From Candidatus Hermodarchaeota archaeon (lineage in GTDB: Archaea > Asgardarchaeota > Lokiarchaeia > Sigyniarchaeales > SOKP01), in the NCBI GenBank assembly GCA_048885765.1, contig JBHLLI010000003.1, positions 2,565 to 66,564 on the forward strand: a stretch of DNA of 64,000 nt. Direction: 5' to 3'. Below the pieces are notes generated by a model. That model worked only from the letters and a program-made list of their open reading frames with translations. It did no database searches and was not told the origin of the DNA. Position 1 is the stretch's first letter, and the number at the start of each line of letters is the position of its first letter. The translations under genes were made by a program, and so were the position numbers. Shown piece after piece: positions 28,780-52,675 of this stretch.

Positions 28780-28931
28780 TATTCAACTCTTTCGCTAGAT
28801 CGAAAATCTTTTCTTTATTTGATATATTAAAATCCTAATTTAGGTAATATAAACTTTATATAGTAATTTGAAATAGTTAATTAGGAGTAAAAATGAATCC
28901 AAAACCTTAAGAGAACAAAATGAAATAAAAC

Positions 28932-29516
28932 TCAAAAAATTTTAAAAATTATATCATCCAAAGTACGTTTTGGTACATGAATTTGACCATCAGAAGTTTT
29001 CCAATAGTTGAATGAGTCTTGATAGGTTTCTATTATAGACTCTTCATCAGAATATCCTAAGCTAATCACATGTTTAATTTCATAATAATCAGGTATTTCA
29101 AGTAATTTCCTAATTTTAATCTTTTTTATAGAACCCATCCAACAGCTTCCTATTCCGTAATTAACGGCACCTAATAAGATATTTTCTACTGCAGCTCCAA
29201 CATCAAAATCCACATAAGATGATTTTATATTGGTGTTTAATAAAACTACAATATATGCAGTAGGTTCCCTCCCTTTTTCAGGAGTTCTTTGATCTGGTGG
29301 AAGTGAAGCTGCCCAATTGACTAAAGTAAATATTTTTTCCCTTATATCAGAATTTTGGATAATTATGAATTCAAGGGCTTGAATGTTTCTTGCCATAGGA
29401 GCAACTCGAGCAAGATCTATTAATTTCTTTAAGATTTTTAAATCAATAGGTTCTTGTTTGAATCTACGGATGGTCCGCCTTTTATATACAATATCTTCAA
29501 AATCCATTTTTAACAA
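28932..29516 (-). CDS. Nitroreductase family protein
   Basis: RRTIRRF, APMARNIQ, DVGAAVENILL...GIGSCW, LGY. Confidence 0.92.
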   Translation of the reverse strand: MLKMDFEDIVYKRRTIRRFKQEPIDLKILKKLIDLARVAPMARNIQALEFIIIQNSDIREKIFTLVNWAASLPPDQRTPEKGREPTAYIVVLLNTNIKSSYVDFDVGAAVENILLGAVNYGIGSCWMGSIKKIKIRKLLEIPDYYEIKHVISLGYSDEESIIETYQDSFNYWKTSDGQIHVPKRTLDDIIFKIF

Positions 29517-29530
29517 CTAAAAATTAATTA

Positions 29531-30571
29531 TTATTTAGATCTAAGTAAGGTTTTAGTTAATTTAAAGAATATTTCTTCCACATTTTTTCCAGTTAAAGCA
29601 GACGTCTCTACATATTCAAGATTAAGTTTTTGTGCCATTAAAGATGATTCATCAAAATTAATTGTTCTTTGATCGCTCAAGTCTTCTTTATTACCTAAAA
29701 TAAAACCTATTATCTCGTCTTCAATATGAATTATGTTTCTTTCAACATCTTTGTACCAGTTTGGAATACTTTCAAAAGATTTTCGATTTGTGAGGTCAAA
29801 AATAAAGATTACAGCTTCTGCTCCTTTATAAAAATGTCTACGCATAGCTTCAAATTTAATTTGCCCTGCTATATCCCATAAGATAAGTTTTACTTTAATT
29901 TTGTTAATTTCTACATTTTTCTCAGATATATTGACCCCTAAAGTAGGAATATAGGTTCTCGCGAAAGCATCATCAGTAAATCTTAAGATAGTTGAAGTTT
30001 TTCCCACACTAGGATCTCCACAAACCACAATTTTAAAATTATATACAACTGCTGATTCTTCCTCCAAGTCTTCTTCAGGAAATGCTTCTGATTCTGAAGT
30101 TGGTTTCTCTTTTTTTTGTAAGTCATTTAAAATCTCTGATATTCTGAGATTGAGGTTATTTATCTCATAGAAAATATCATTAGTTGTAGCTCCATTCGAC
30201 TTAAGATCTATAATTCTTTCTGAAAAATTATTGAAAGCTGACTCAAGATAATCTATATATTTGTAAAAAATGACGTCATCTGCCTCATCAAATAGCAGAG
30301 TTATTGTTGATAATGCTGTACCTCCTTTAAAGCTATCTGTTTCCCTTTCTATATATTTTACAATACCTTTTAAATTGAATGAGGGAAAAGGCATTATGAC
30401 AGCAGACCTGGGTACAACCCCTTGATCGGTTGTTAGCATTGTAATAGATTTAATTGCAACCGACATACGAAGCTTTTCAGATAAATCAAGAGGATTCCAA
30501 AGTACCGGGCTAGGACCTGAGCCTTCATTGAGTTCCGTGTAAACAATAGCTTTAATTATATCTGAGAGCAT
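29531..30571 (-). CDS. u-DENN/longin-like domain fused to Rab-like small GTPase
   Basis: N-terminal GPSP...P longin-like start; G1 GDPSVGKTS, G2 PTLG, G3 WDIAGQ, G4 NKED, G5 ETSAL; no C-terminal Cys motif. Confidence 0.88.
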   Translation of the reverse strand: MLSDIIKAIVYTELNEGSGPSPVLWNPLDLSEKLRMSVAIKSITMLTTDQGVVPRSAVIMPFPSFNLKGIVKYIERETDSFKGGTALSTITLLFDEADDVIFYKYIDYLESAFNNFSERIIDLKSNGATTNDIFYEINNLNLRISEILNDLQKKEKPTSESEAFPEEDLEEESAVVYNFKIVVCGDPSVGKTSTILRFTDDAFARTYIPTLGVNISEKNVEINKIKVKLILWDIAGQIKFEAMRRHFYKGAEAVIFIFDLTNRKSFESIPNWYKDVERNIIHIEDEIIGFILGNKEDLSDQRTINFDESSLMAQKLNLEYVETSALTGKNVEEIFFKLTKTLLRSK

Positions 30572-30683
30572 TATTGGGAAAGAAATGGGAATGTATGAGA
30601 ATAAATCTGTTTAATAAATAAAAAAACTTCAAGCTATTAAAAATTTGTAAATCGTAAGTTCTTTTGTTCTTATAATTAGAAGA

Positions 30684-30705
30684 TCGTGAAAGCGAACTTT
30701 CACGA
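30684..30705 (-). terminator. Perfect 9-bp hairpin with UUCG loop; possible terminator or 3'-end element of 30723..30950
   Basis: TCGTGAAAG-CGAA-CTTTCACGA on + strand, about 17 nt past the stop of the minus-strand gene. Function inferred. Confidence 0.4.
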
Positions 30706-30722
30706 AGAAAAATATTGTTTTT

Positions 30723-30950
30723 TTATATAGATGAAATCAGTTTATTTGCTCTTTCACTTTGATTTGGGAACAGATCCAAAGGCACATTGTCTTTCCCCAA
30801 TGTTGAAGCCACAACAAATCTTGCACATATATTATAATCCCCTTTACAATAAGTTTGTTTAAACATTTCGGTCGTTACTGGCATGTTGACCATCTTATCG
30901 TTAAAAAATATACAACCTAATAAATTTTTACAATCCACCATTTTTGTCAT
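30723..30950 (-). CDS. Small four-cysteine protein
   Basis: CKNLLGCIFF...YCKGDYNICAR...VPLDLFPN. Confidence 0.75.
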   Translation of the reverse strand: MTKMVDCKNLLGCIFFNDKMVNMPVTTEMFKQTYCKGDYNICARFVVASTLGKDNVPLDLFPNQSERANKLISSI

Positions 30951-31061
30951 CTTAAGAAAAATGAAGTAAGATAATAGAATAAAACTGCATATAAATAATA
31001 TAGAGAAATATTACTTATTTTGTGAGATTGAAACGGTCTAAGAAGTAAGATATGAAGGAAA

Positions 31062-32105
31062 TCATAGACGTGATTTATATAACAAATTAGCAATTGTAGA
31101 AAATGCTTCATGTACATTTTCACCATTTAGTGCGGAGGTTTCAAAAAAACCTAATTCTAATTCGCTGGCTAAATTTTCGATGCTTTCAAGAGTTATTTTT
31201 CTCTCTTCTACTAAATCCTTCTTATTTGCTATAATATAACCTATTAATTCTTCTCCACGATCTTTTAGCTGTTCGACGACATCTGAAAACCATTTAGGTA
31301 AACTATTAAATGTTTCATCTCTTGTCAAATCAAAAACGAGAAATACAGCGTCAGAACCACGATAGAACTGTTGCCTCATTGTTTGAAACTTTTGTTGACC
31401 TCCAATATCCCATAATGTTAATTGGATAACAACATCATCTATTTTAAAGATTTTGTCTGATACCATAACTCCTAAAGTAGGTACATAATTTCTCCTAAAA
31501 GCATTATCGGTATATCGTAAAATTAATGAAGTTTTACCGACGTTGGGATCTCCACAAATTATGATTTTAAATTGATAGTCTATTAGACTTCGATCCACGA
31601 TTTTTAGAGTTGGAAATGCCTCACTCTCTTGTTGAGTAGTTTCTTGTAATTTTAATTCCTCTAGAAGGGTTGAAATATTAAATTCAAGATGTTCGAGAAC
31701 ATCAATGTATTCTTTTCTTGTGGACCTTGCTTTTTCTAGCTTTATTATTGAGGGAGTGAGATTATTAAAAGGAATTGAGAGTTCATTAATATATTTGTAA
31801 AAAATTACATCGTGTTGTTCTTGAAAAAGCAAAACTAAAGCAGATTGACCTATTCCCCCACGCCTAGATTCATCATCCCATTTAATGTATTTAATTAATC
31901 CTTTTAAATTCATTGAAGTAAAGGGAAGGATTACTAATGATTCTGGAATAAGCCCTTGTTCTCCAGTTAAAACAGTTAAGGCTTTTATGCTAATATGCAT
32001 TAGTTCCATTTGAGTAAATTTAGCAGGAACCCAGGCAAATGGATTAGGTCCAACCTCATCATCCATCTGAACGTAAGCAATACCCTTTATAATTTGATGT
32101 GACAT
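31062..32105 (-). CDS. u-DENN/longin-like domain fused to Rab-like small GTPase
   Basis: DDEVGPNPFAWVP, DDESRRGG loop; G1 GDPNVGKTS, G2 PTLG, G3 WDIGGQ, G4 NKKD, G5 ETSAL. Confidence 0.88.
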   Translation of the reverse strand: MSHQIIKGIAYVQMDDEVGPNPFAWVPAKFTQMELMHISIKALTVLTGEQGLIPESLVILPFTSMNLKGLIKYIKWDDESRRGGIGQSALVLLFQEQHDVIFYKYINELSIPFNNLTPSIIKLEKARSTRKEYIDVLEHLEFNISTLLEELKLQETTQQESEAFPTLKIVDRSLIDYQFKIIICGDPNVGKTSLILRYTDNAFRRNYVPTLGVMVSDKIFKIDDVVIQLTLWDIGGQQKFQTMRQQFYRGSDAVFLVFDLTRDETFNSLPKWFSDVVEQLKDRGEELIGYIIANKKDLVEERKITLESIENLASELELGFFETSALNGENVHEAFSTIANLLYKSRL

Positions 32106-32230
32106 AATTACATGAAATTTTTCTTGAAGAACTGGTATTATTATGTTGATAATCTGTAAATTTTTTGCTTTTAACTAATAATATAATTTTTTTATATAAA
32201 TAATAATTGCTGAAAAAAAAATTTTATAGA

Positions 32231-32941
32231 TTATGTTTTTAATCCTATATACATAAACCAAAAGCTACTTAGATATCCAATTCTCACTACAATCACCAAA
32301 AATCCCGGAGCGGTTAATCCCTCTAACAATCCAAAAATACAAAAGCATAATGATCCCGCTGAAAGATATAGAAAATTCTTTCGAATAACTCCTGAAGATT
32401 GAATACCTTTATATAAAAACCCGATTCCTAAGAAAATTATTACAGCTATTAATAACCCCCCCATTAAATACCCTCCAAGACTATTTAAATTTACGTTGTA
32501 ATCAATTAAATTACTTGGCGGAGGGGTGGGGGGTGTAGGAACAAAATTAAAAGAACCTAAGGGATTAGAAAGCACAACAATTTCAAAGATTATTGAAATA
32601 ATTAAAATAATTAGAACAATATAAATTTTCATTTTTGGGATTAATAATTCTGCTCCGATATACATTGCTGTAATTATTGCTGGTGCAAACCAAATATAAG
32701 ATAAAATAGCGACGATCCCATTATTAGGCAAGTTCTGTTGAATAAAAAGAACTAATAGAAAATCTAAAAAGACCCCTAAGAACATAAGCCCTGCGAACAT
32801 GTTGGCTAAACCTAAATATAAAAGAAGTTTAGCTTTTGTTTTTCTGGATCTATAAATAAAGAATAAACCAAATAATACACCCAAGATCACCACTCCGGAA
32901 GCAGTGATACCATCAATCCAACCATTAATGTCTGTTATCAA
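32231..32941 (-). CDS. Seven-TM membrane protein, hypothetical
   Basis: Seven hydrophobic segments by eye; Pro-rich loop PTPPTPPP between TM4 and TM5. Confidence 0.75.
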   Translation of the reverse strand: MITDINGWIDGITASGVVILGVLFGLFFIYRSRKTKAKLLLYLGLANMFAGLMFLGVFLDFLLVLFIQQNLPNNGIVAILSYIWFAPAIITAMYIGAELLIPKMKIYIVLIILIISIIFEIVVLSNPLGSFNFVPTPPTPPPSNLIDYNVNLNSLGGYLMGGLLIAVIIFLGIGFLYKGIQSSGVIRKNFLYLSAGSLCFCIFGLLEGLTAPGFLVIVVRIGYLSSFWFMYIGLKT

Positions 32942-33209: not shown

Positions 33210-34040
33210 TTATAATTTTCGAATTTCTTTTATTAACTTTCTAGCTTCATTTAATTTCTCTTTATGAAGCTTTTTTAAGTTTTGAAGTTTTTTATCATCA
33301 AGTTCGTTGTTATCCATTATATCTGTTATAGAATATAATGCTTGCATGATATTCCCTAGACTATGAGAATACTCATCCTTCAGTACAAATTTTTCCCTTG
33401 TGGAAATGACGTTCTCGACGTTCATGATCATTATTAATATTAAAAATGTAGTTAGATATGCTATTGAATAGTTTATAATAATGTCAATTATATTATTTGA
33501 ATCATATAATCCAAAGCTATAGCCCTTAGATGCAAAATATAAAGAAAATGGTATAAATAATACACCTATTATTATAAGTGAATAATACCATCTAGTAGCT
33601 TTACCCAAAACTTCTTTAAACCTTTTTCTATTAATAAGCGGAATCAAATAAGCACCAAATATAGCAATGTAATTTATTAAATTTGAAAAACTGAGTGATA
33701 AAAGTAGCCCAAAAAAAAGATATAAAACAATTGAAACAAAAACTTCAATAAAAATGAGGAGAAAGACAATTTTTAAAGGAAATTCAAGAAAATAAAAAAC
33801 CAATCCAAGCATCATTAAAATTGAACTTAAAGAAGCAAATACTACATTAAGAAAAAGTATTATTTCGGAAAGATCAGAAAATATAGCAAATATCACCGCA
33901 AATATCCATAATAACCATGCTATGGACATGATTAAGAAAATTTTCTTTTTTGTATTAAAATAATATTCTGCACAAACGATTAATCCAATAAACCTTAAAA
34001 GCATAAGGATTATTAATAGAGAATAAATTACCTCGTTCAT
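33210..34040 (-). CDS. Seven-TM protein with C-terminal HisKA/DHp-like hairpin, no ATPase domain
   Basis: Seven hydrophobic segments, then DEYSHSLGNIMQAL H-box-like helix and a second helix, then stop. Confidence 0.65.
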   Translation of the reverse strand: MNEVIYSLLIILMLLRFIGLIVCAEYYFNTKKKIFLIMSIAWLLWIFAVIFAIFSDLSEIILFLNVVFASLSSILMMLGLVFYFLEFPLKIVFLLIFIEVFVSIVLYLFFGLLLSLSFSNLINYIAIFGAYLIPLINRKRFKEVLGKATRWYYSLIIIGVLFIPFSLYFASKGYSFGLYDSNNIIDIIINYSIAYLTTFLILIMIMNVENVISTREKFVLKDEYSHSLGNIMQALYSITDIMDNNELDDKKLQNLKKLHKEKLNEARKLIKEIRKL

Positions 34041-51202: not shown

Positions 51203-52675
51203 GTGGGTTATTTGACAAAAACTAAAGAAAAACAAAAAAAACAGAAGCCAGCAAAACAAGAAGAAGTAGAGACCAAATCGAATATTATCAAAGCAGTAGT
51301 TTTGAGTATATTTGATGAAAACGGTCCATCACCAAAGATTTTTTGGCCCGATGATTTGGATGAGCAAGCGGGGCTTTTAATCGCAATGAAAACAATTAGT
51401 TTATTAATGGGAGATTCTACTTATCAAGATGGCATCGGAACAGAAGGAGTTAATTATTTTGGAATTCTTCCTTTTCCTGATTTAAAATTAAATGGACTAA
51501 CTTATTTTTTCTTAATACCTGATGATAAAGCTCGTGGTAAAGCTCTAGCAGCAACAATTACAGTATTGATTGATGAAAATAACAAAGTATTTTTTTATGA
51601 AAATATGAAGTATTTAAGAGTTATCATGGATAAAGCCGCCACTCAAATCCAGTACAATAAAAGTTTGGATGAACGAGAACTCATTATTGACGAGCTACAT
51701 AATGAACTCATCGAATTTACCAAAGAATTAAAAGATCCTTTTTCTACTAAACGTCAATTGAAAATATTGCTTACCGGATTAGACAAAGCAGGAAAAACAA
51801 GCTTTATGCTCGGTATAAAAAGAAAATATTCTGAAATTATAAAATCCATGCCCACAAAAGGCGTTGAAAGGACAGAGGAAAATATTTTCGATGAACAAAA
51901 TTCCCAAATTTCCTTATGGGATTTAGGGGGACAAGAAAAATATAGAGAAAGATATCTTGAACAAAGTGAAGTATACTTGTATAATATTGATTTAATGTTT
52001 TTTTTCATTGATATTCAGGATGTAGAAAGAGTTGAGGAAGCACTTGATTTATTTAGTAAAATTATAAAAATCTTAATTGAATTAGATGAATTTCCCCCCA
52101 TTGTCGTTTGTTTAAATAAATTTGATCCGGATCTTAAGGGTTCTGGTGAAATATTTAAGAGTTTAGAAATTATCGCGGATGCTATTAAGGAAAATTCTGA
52201 TAGATTTTTTATTAAGATTTTTCAGACAACTATTTTTGATCATTGGAGTCTTATTTCCGCATACTCTTTTGGTTTATCCCAATTAAGCCCAAATCGTGAA
52301 TTATTTAGAAATCAATTGAAAAAGTTTGCGAAAAAAACCAATTCAGATGCTATTTTACTACTTAATGAAAACGGTTTAATATTATCTAATTTTTCTAAAA
52401 CAGATATTTCTGGAAAACTTTTTGAGATTATTGCTCCATATTATAAGAATCTGTATAAAACATTTGAAGAATTTAAATTACTTGATCAGGATTTCATAGT
52501 ATCATCTGGTATCGCGGATGAATCTATGGAAGTAATTTTTAAAAAAATTACTATTGAAAAATATAATTTGTACTTATTACTGTTCTTAGAAAAATCTTTT
52601 GAAATTGAAAAAATCGAAAAAAATTTACCAGAATTCTCGAAAGCTCTTATTGATTTAATTCATACGTACATTTAA
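51203..52675 (+). CDS. u-DENN/longin-like (DDKARG loop) + Rag/Arf-like GTPase + roadblock-like domain protein
   Basis: FDENGPSPKIFWP, FFLIPDDKARG; G1 GLDKAGKTS, PTKG, WDLGGQ, NKFD, TTIFD; C-terminal LLNENGLILS. Confidence 0.85.
   Translation: MGYLTKTKEKQKKQKPAKQEEVETKSNIIKAVVLSIFDENGPSPKIFWPDDLDEQAGLLIAMKTISLLMGDSTYQDGIGTEGVNYFGILPFPDLKLNGLTYFFLIPDDKARGKALAATITVLIDENNKVFFYENMKYLRVIMDKAATQIQYNKSLDERELIIDELHNELIEFTKELKDPFSTKRQLKILLTGLDKAGKTSFMLGIKRKYSEIIKSMPTKGVERTEENIFDEQNSQISLWDLGGQEKYRERYLEQSEVYLYNIDLMFFFIDIQDVERVEEALDLFSKIIKILIELDEFPPIVVCLNKFDPDLKGSGEIFKSLEIIADAIKENSDRFFIKIFQTTIFDHWSLISAYSFGLSQLSPNRELFRNQLKKFAKKTNSDAILLLNENGLILSNFSKTDISGKLFEIIAPYYKNLYKTFEEFKLLDQDFIVSSGIADESMEVIFKKITIEKYNLYLLLFLEKSFEIEKIEKNLPEFSKALIDLIHTYI

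Follow-up and report, generated by a model that had tools for sequence, protein, structure and literature searches.

Tandem Asgard archaeal proteins that join a GTPase-activating-protein-type longin domain to a Rab-like GTPase domain

Eukaryotic GTPase-activating protein (GAP) complexes built on longin domains act on separate Rag or Arf proteins. In the C9orf72-SMCR8-ARF1 complex, the GTPase sits in a cup formed by two longin domains, with SMCR8 R147 directed at BeF3 (PMC8213707), and NPRL2 carries R78 on a longin loop (PMC8534245). Asgard archaea encode "FLCN/SMCR8-type" longins in which the arginine finger has a GP motif as its spatial neighbor. These are described as longin proteins, and ArfR or Rag/Gtr GTPases are suggested as their clients (PMC12290439). 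Longin-GTPase fusions are also known from Asgard genomes. Lokiarchaeum has 41 longins, five of which are fused to Arf-like GTPases (PMC4917890, citing Klinger 2016), longin-Rag-family fusions occur together with NPRL2-like longins (Liu et al., preprint 10.1101/2020.10.19.343400), and MK-D1 has architectures with an N-terminal longin and a GTPase domain (L-G; PMC10933270). Here we describe two neighboring genes, pB and pA, in a 64,000-nucleotide stretch of DNA (the window) from contig JBHLLI010000003.1 of a Candidatus Hermodarchaeota archaeon. Their products belong to an Asgard-archaeal family of ~350-residue proteins in which a GAP-type longin domain leads through a long helix and an F-P linker to an anchor-less Rab-like G domain. 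The G domain is therefore part of the same chain, in contrast to the separate clients of the eukaryotic longin GAPs and to the longins of PMC12290439. It occupies the C-terminal place (residues 177-347) where FLCN, SMCR8, and NPRL2 have a DENN or NPRL2-specific domain.

Both genes lie on the minus strand, at the coordinates given in a preliminary description made from the letters alone: pB at 31062..32105 (347 amino acids, B-type orthogroup, RRGG loop) and its paralog pA at 29531..30571 (346 amino acids, A-type orthogroup, FKGG loop). The two proteins align without gaps at 44% identity (151/346 residues, E 3e-111), and at 42% identity over the N-domain. They have a common layout, consisting of an N-domain of ~160 residues, a linker with the motif ESEAFP, which that description had also recognized in both, and a complete Ras/Rab-type G domain. 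In pB, the longin domain including its two C-terminal helices covers residues 1-159 (31629..32105), the linker motif residues 160-165 (31611..31628, checked by translation), and the G domain residues 177-347 (31065..31577). The corresponding parts of pA are residues 1-159 (30095..30571), to which the longin fold is assigned through the gapless 44% alignment with pB, residues 160-165 (30077..30094), and residues 177-346 (29534..30043). A GP motif occupies residues 19-22 of each protein, as GPNP in pB (32040..32051, checked by translation) and as GPSP in pA (30506..30517). Residues 77-84 of pB are DDESRRGG (31854..31877), a loop with the candidate arginine finger R82 in the pattern D78-x3-R82-G83; the motif had been correctly identified, and only its range, given as 31857-31877, was one codon short. 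The same residues of pA are ETDSFKGG (30320..30343), with the lysine that had been noticed at the arginine-finger position and with R81 and D78 replaced as well.

The G domain is called Rab-like on the strength of its G1-G5 motifs and its best similarity. Pfam Ras (PF00071) spans residues 180-342 of pA and pB (E 6.7e-48 and 6.4e-45) and scores 153-163 bits, against 57-58 for Arf; residues 1-170 of either protein are without a Pfam match. All five motifs are complete in both proteins: the P-loop GDPxVGKTS (GDPNVGKTS in pB, 31542..31568; GDPSVGKTS in pA, 30008..30034), T210, WDIxGQ (WDIGGQ and WDIAGQ), NKxD (NKKD and NKED), and TSAL. A full-length family profile, whose matches in the PDB are dominated by the G domain and are uninformative on the N-domain, found Rab1A, Rab8A, Rab10, and Ypt1 as its best chains (E 1e-54 to 1e-52) and matched the Thorarchaeota Rab 7ezb at E 3.2e-50. 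Among 78 diverse family members, T210 is present in 75, Q237 in 70, and the P-loop proline Pro187, at a position that we equate with Ras Gly12, in 60. Compared with the eukaryotic Rab1/Ypt1 Rabs and 7ezb, pA and pB add the N-terminal longin and the P-loop proline, and they have neither a C-terminal cysteine nor a hypervariable tail. The chains end in ...TLLRSK and ...LYKSRL, and the last 10 residues of both are free of cysteine, in agreement with the earlier remark that neither protein has a prenylation site. This is also the rule in the family, where 3/78 members have a cysteine in the last 10 residues and 0/78 end in CC or CXC.

A longin fold for the N-domain, with the arginine in the β4-β5 loop, had been proposed at the outset, and structural models support both parts of the proposal. 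Full-length pB was modeled with AlphaFold2 (AF2) from a 78-row alignment at a mean predicted local confidence (pLDDT) of 88.9 and a predicted template-modeling score (pTM) of 0.55, with pLDDT falling to about 51-72 around the ESEAFP linker; each domain is modeled confidently, but their placement relative to one another is not. The N-domain alone reached a pLDDT of 92.7 and a pTM of 0.86. Secondary structure assigned by DSSP to the pB models runs β1 6-15, β2 19-26, α1 32-48, β3 58-62, β4 67-77, β5 85-95, α2 96-125, and α3 130-159/161. The GP motif stands at the β1-β2 turn, β2 starting at residue 19, and R81-R82-G83-G84 lie in the β4-β5 connection. Longins have the topology β-β-α-β-β-β-α-α, which differs from the roadblock order in the absence of an N-terminal helix and the presence of two C-terminal helices (PMC10933270). 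The pB N-domain is accordingly modeled as a longin of the uDENN type, with a five-stranded antiparallel sheet and its elements in longin rather than roadblock order.

Comparisons of the modeled N-domain with solved structures point to one group of longins. Foldseek against the PDB returned seven matches at E<=0.001, all of them to 8yqg or to chains of GATOR1-KICSTOR and SEA-complex entries. The top match was 8yqg (E 1.2e-7, TM 0.72/0.78), which is titled as the dimeric Longin domain of a Roadblock-Longin protein from a Lokiarchaeota archaeon, and chains of C9orf72-SMCR8, Lst4, and FLCN-FNIP2 entries fell just under the threshold. VIA-align, which is independent of Foldseek, was run on 48,161 representative chains and gave the same order in a second run. 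It ranked 8yqg first (19.0), followed by the Lst4 longin (12.7), chains of the FLCN-FNIP2 complex at ranks 3 and 7 (11.8 and 10.8), a GATOR1 chain at rank 4 (11.7), chains of C9orf72-SMCR8 at ranks 5 and 8 (11.3 and 10.7), and a SEA complex chain at rank 6 (11.0). From rank 9 onward came the VAMP7, TRAPP, and Sec22 longins at 9.4 or less, and roadblocks scored 8.9 or less. Matches in both searches are identified by entry title, that is, by complex and not by subunit; the chains from GATOR1 entries are 362-370 residues long, which we take to fit the size of NPRL2. In these model-based comparisons, the nearest solved neighbors of the N-domain are longins of GAP complexes and not those of SNAREs, TRAPP, or adaptors. 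A search of the ESM Atlas with residues 1-165 gave top scores of 0.88, 0.86, and 0.84, and in one cluster 19% of the members carry Pfam NPR2, which at scores that are all <0.9 is a lead only. The nearest solved relative, 8yqg, differs from pA and pB in that it has a roadblock domain before the longin, no G domain after it, and a proline at the R82 position. No paper describing 8yqg was found in a literature search.

At the level of sequence, the similarity of the family to Pfam Folliculin is seen only through its relatives, and the N-domains of pA and pB themselves match neither Folliculin (PF11704) nor NPR2 (PF06218). A Folliculin match at E<=1 was present in 9/34 relatives scanned, always over the β4-loop-β5-α2 stretch. 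One of the 34, P0175, passes the cut-off (24.5 vs 23.3 bits); its match covers residues 74-137 with the ARG included, and P0175 is itself related to the pB N-domain at E 3.9e-14. Folliculin was found above its cut-off in 22/151 Asgard genomes and in 0/14 control genomes, and NPR2 was over its cut-off in 0/151 Asgard genomes, with one sub-threshold match. Ten Asgard longins from Folliculin-positive loci all have GP and an invariant D-x-x-A-R-G. The family profile aligned to these ten in hhalign at 97.0% (E 1.2e-10, 112 columns), in a register that places GP on GP and D78, R82, and G83 on the D, R, and G of the invariant D..ARG. Judged by this alignment, the Asgard FLCN/SMCR8-type longins of PMC12290439 have the same GP and Arg motifs in the same register as the pA/pB family. 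R82 of the family thus falls on the arginine-finger position of these Asgard longins, and its equivalence to the eukaryotic arginine is drawn through that paper. Among PDB chains, a 25-row N-domain profile had a single credible match, to 8yqg at E 1.6e-8. Chains of FLCN, NPRL2, and SMCR8 were absent at E<=10 from PDB searches with the family profile, P0175, and a Folliculin-positive Asgard longin. At one Folliculin-positive locus (L033, G083:C1:639125-642370), three longin genes follow one another head to tail. GP and D-E-K-A-R-G are present in all three, and two of the three longins have a C-terminal extension of ~200 residues.

The family is a large one within the Asgard archaea. A search with the pB N-domain identified 258 proteins at E<=0.001 in a 90%-clustered collection and 132 clusters in an exhaustive library at 50% identity, of which 83 reach E<=1e-10. 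The metagenome-assembled genomes (MAGs) that encode members are labeled Promethearchaeota, Loki-, Thor-, Hod-, Odin-, and Heimdallarchaeota. Where members have been given names at all, these are "Rab family GTPase," "small GTP-binding protein," "Rab-1A," or similar, and their precomputed Pfam domains are GTPase families throughout, with no longin. A search with the N-domain profile returned the same family again, with no folliculin-type names among the best 120 of 285 matches. The 132 clusters include 60 of ~350-amino-acid longin-plus-G-domain proteins, four with a G domain and <320 amino acids, 41 of <200 amino acids that are mostly cut at contig ends, and 26 with other architectures or truncated. 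The last group includes proteins of ~286-290 amino acids, a longin with a coiled coil at ~400-435 amino acids, and a Rag-type protein of 486 amino acids. The remaining cluster adds a C-terminal TIR domain to the longin and G domain. This protein, P0145, comes from a metagenome and has 525 amino acids (Pfam TIR_2, E 7.3e-19).

Motifs of the N-domain and linker are conserved beyond chance. R82 is present in 93/94 aligned rows, 92 of which are close homologs of pB, and the sole exception is pA. Across the 78 diverse members, G19 and P20 are each found in 67, D78 in 58, R82 and G83 each in 65, Y103 in 75, K104 in 70, E155 in 72, and the linker residues F164 and P165 in 64 and 62. GP and R82 occur together in 61 of these members and are both missing in 10, with GP alone in three and the arginine alone in four. 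Longin cores are about as conserved as G domains among orthologs, in the A- and B-type groups alike. A quick IQ-TREE phylogeny (LG+G4) was built from 107 rows, leaving out P0204 and P0249, which are poorly aligned and have broken G motifs, and the open reading frame (ORF) of locus L018, which has 391 amino acids and a mis-called start. Eight of the 10 members without GP and Arg form one clade in this tree (P0138, P0144, P0151, P0178, P0190, P0222, P0240, and P0247; SH-aLRT 83), and Pro187 of the P-loop is gone in seven of the eight. From their sequences, these proteins look like candidate "dead-longin" paralogs, closer to a degenerate partner type than pA is. No such member is among the matches shown for the window's genome, in which one of five matches is not listed.

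Taken with the solved C9orf72-SMCR8-ARF1 structure, in which the arginine lies at BeF3, these features lead us to infer a finger mechanism. We give a probability of about 0.45 to the reading that the longin is a built-in GAP whose arginine finger acts on the tethered Rab-like domain. Longin domains would pair, as homo- or heterodimers, into a platform where small GTPases dock. The D78-x3-R82-G83 loop beside the GP motif would supply the finger, which would accelerate the hydrolysis of GTP by a G domain attached to the same dimer, with that domain's own Gln237. Such a protein would time its own switching and would have no need of a separate GAP. The B-then-A paralogs of the genus may work as a heterodimer, and in the sublineage of the window, pB alone would offer a full finger, an asymmetry that would have arisen within the genus and not be ancestral.

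The pairing step of this mechanism was modeled. A complex of full-length pB and pA, predicted with two GTP and two Mg, fell in the "weak support" class, with a median interface score (ipSAE) of 0.59, whereas the best of three controls scored 0.00; the runs share >=50% of contacts and partner pLDDT is >=77. The mark for this class is reached by 116/157 solved complexes and 2/215 mismatches in calibration, and 18/157 solved complexes and both passing mismatches lie at 0.60 or under. Because similar longin dimers have already been solved, the pass may reflect likeness or memory. The heterodimer suggested in the preliminary description is thus weakly supported, and the prediction raises the odds of dimerization a little.

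A number of observations count against a built-in GAP. Even at E<=10, the N-domain of pB is without a Pfam match, so that its Folliculin link is transitive or structural. Folliculin at E<=1 also rings in 8/14 control genomes, none of them above the cut-off, and sub-threshold Folliculin matches are for this reason unspecific. In the profile alignment, 8yqg keeps GP and has a proline at the R82 position; a longin of this type therefore exists without the arginine, and GP can persist alone. The joint loss of GP and Arg falls mostly in one weak clade and so may represent one or a few events. Coupling of an intact longin motif with Pro187 was not supported, as five independent pairs gave a median p of 1 (raw counts in the 107 rows: both 77, neither 8, mixed 12 and 10). 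About tenfold more C9orf72-SMCR8 complex is needed on RAB8A than on ARF1 (PMC8213707), so that longin GAPs, which act poorly on RAB8A, are not known to be effective on Rabs. With a pTM of 0.55, the full-length AF2 model does not confidently dock the G domain onto the longin of the same chain. The weakly supported pB-pA prediction, for its part, leaves heterodimer and homodimer, and action in cis and in trans, undistinguished.

Some of the same observations would suit a longin that is mainly a dimerization or scaffold module, comparable to the C-terminal roadblocks of RagA-RagC and Gtr1-Gtr2. Its GP/Arg surface would then bind another GTPase (ArfR or Rag-like), a membrane, or an effector, and pA-pB would be a Rag-like pair with no built-in GAP. 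Rag/Gtr heterodimers and MglA-MglB likewise combine a small GTPase with a dimerization domain of the roadblock/longin superfamily, occur as paralogous pairs, and have a platform that regulates nucleotide state. The deposited structure of the nearest solved relative, 8yqg, is that of a longin dimer. The conserved B-then-A pair, its weakly supported heterodimer model, and a cis docking that is not confident would fit as well. In one Asgard genome, paralogous GTPases encoded in tandem are predicted to pair by way of roadblock domains (PMC10933270), and ArfR or Rag/Gtr are the clients proposed for GP-motif longins (PMC12290439). We nevertheless consider a scaffold role somewhat unlikely. The Arg/GP site is kept precisely in members that bear a G domain (60/132 clusters are of the ~350-amino-acid kind and the rest are mostly fragments), no client is closer at hand than the tethered G domain, and a scaffold leaves unexplained a D-x3-R-G loop as conserved as that of eukaryotic GAP subunits. 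A platform of another kind, one that resembles a guanine nucleotide exchange factor or otherwise sets nucleotide state, as in TRAPP, Mon1-Ccz1, and DENN, and keeps the fused Rab-like domain loaded, appears improbable.

The arrangement of the two genes was compared across the genus. A profile search found the N-domain in 41/41 genomes, comprising 40 related genomes and the window's own. In 13/25 genomes of the genus, two ~350-amino-acid members lie on one strand within 3.1 kb or less. Members are apart in >=6/25 (by 138 kb, by 12 kb, and on different contigs in four), and 6/25 have one or no ~350-amino-acid member listed. These pairing counts are lower bounds, as 25 matches are not listed and the MAGs are incomplete. 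Of the 20 regions fetched for locus comparison, 12 are tandem, and in every one of these 12 a single pB-type gene stands upstream of a single pA-type gene. Most of the gaps measure 160-204 bp and four are longer, at 418-2012 bp; in the window, the gap is 490 bp.

Phylogenetic analysis places the lysine of pA late in this history. The pA-type orthogroup (16 rows, SH-aLRT 99) stands beside the pB-type group (33 rows, 91), and K82 is restricted to one six-row subclade (SH-aLRT 100) inside the pA-type group. Arg82 is present in the 10 remaining pA-type rows and in every pB-type row. Throughout the K subclade, R81 is replaced by Phe or Ser, and D78 is gone in the window's pA and its sister. The window's pA has the loop changes D78T, R81F, and R82K, with GP and G83-G84 retained. 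Because 10/16 pA-type rows keep the arginine, the lysine is recent and derived and not the mark of an old, FNIP-like dead subunit. The eukaryotic complexes FLCN-FNIP2, SMCR8-C9orf72, and NPRL2-NPRL3 have one Arg subunit each, whereas pA and pB both had the arginine ancestrally; FNIP2 and NPRL3 are without the GP motif (PMC12290439), and pA retains it. The pair had initially been read as a catalytic protein with a disabled partner. Of that reading, K82 in pA holds, but the lysine is derived (6/16 pA-type rows) and GP is kept. The lysine is also conserved in 6/6 rows of its subclade, which suggests that site 82 is still constrained and that "disabled" may be the wrong word, a further point to be set against a catalytic division of labor.

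The pair may also be a retained tandem duplication whose products act independently, alone or as homodimers, with a near-neutral or mildly attenuating R-to-K change. The separation of members in at least six of the 25 genomes and the limitation of K82 to one young subclade fit such a history, and a complex model that is blind to hetero- versus homodimers does not speak against it. Order and strand, however, are constant in the tandem cases (13/13), spacing is often about 160-200 bp, and the substitutions of pA cluster in the loop (D78T, R81F, R82K) while GP and G83-G84 stay; we regard independent action as somewhat unlikely. The built-in GAP can be extended to a wider evolutionary proposal. 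The tethered GAP-GTPase unit would be the prokaryotic version of three eukaryotic modules, FLCN-FNIP:Rag, GATOR1:Rag, and C9orf72-SMCR8:Arf, but with a Rab-like client, and its symmetric pair would be turning into catalytic and attenuated subunits, as in the origin of FLCN/FNIP, NPRL2/NPRL3, and SMCR8/C9orf72. This extension is speculative, and we regard it as rather unlikely.

Further longin genes occur in the same genome. A third family member outside the pair lies at 51203..52675 on the plus strand and encodes 490 amino acids. Its longin (GPSP, DDKARGK) is of the same type as that of pA and pB and is joined to a G domain of the Gtr1/RagA type (Pfam Gtr1_RagA, E 1.4e-24), with ~90 further residues at the C-terminus. 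The protein matches Folliculin at E 0.0085 and 16.3-17.6 bits, under the 23.3-bit cut-off. Many genomes of the genus encode an ortholog of 470-500 amino acids at a distance of ~19-25 kb from the pair, and orthologs in sister genera pass the Folliculin cut-off. Elsewhere in the window's genome, a 966-amino-acid open frame matches the longin profile (G000:C190:4199-4603, plus strand). Its counterparts are open frames of ~1,120-1,150 amino acids in >=15 genomes of the genus, with longin profile matches at E 1e-7 to 1e-11.

The window has a G+C content of ~30%, and by the names of its homologs and its fold matches it belongs to an Asgard archaeon of the Lokiarchaeia/Promethearchaeota kind. A nitroreductase-family gene (28932..29516, minus strand, Pfam E 2.1e-25) starts 14 bp past the pA stop, and given this spacing on the same strand, the two may be co-transcribed. 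On the 5' side of pB are two multi-pass membrane proteins, at 32231..32941 and 33210..34040, which have no Pfam match. The gap between pA and pB contains a Cys-rich ORF of 75 amino acids (30723..30950, minus strand), which was rejected as a component of the pair's system. No Pfam family matches it, and it was seen in only 1/30 other genomes of the genus, the closest one, where it has an internal stop, and it is for these reasons probably not a gene. No RNA read sets covering window positions 28900-32300 are listed, and eight DNA runs from four studies are.

Longin-GTPase fusions and Asgard longins with GP and Arg are each already in print, separately. In the main passages on them, the published Asgard fusions are described as having Arf-like or Rag-like G domains, in contrast to the Rab-like domain of the pA/pB family. 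In the same passages, supplementary architecture lists aside, the fused longin is not linked to a GP/Arg GAP motif. The terms "fused," "Rab-like," and "GTPase domain" are absent from the main text of PMC12290439, its Data S1 aside. The fusion of a GP/Arg longin to a Rab-like domain, the recurring B-then-A pair, and the R-to-K change were not found in print, supplements aside.

PMC12290439 raises the question of the GTPases on which Asgard longins of the GP/Arg type act. A longin fused to a Rab-like domain names a concrete client and makes this question directly testable. If the longin is not a GAP, the family still represents a domain architecture that has gone unannotated and merits a place in catalogs of Asgard eukaryotic signature proteins. 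If it is a built-in GAP, the longin-GAP mechanism would predate eukaryotes and would have begun in cis, which would bear on the origin of GTPase regulation by FLCN, GATOR1, and C9orf72.

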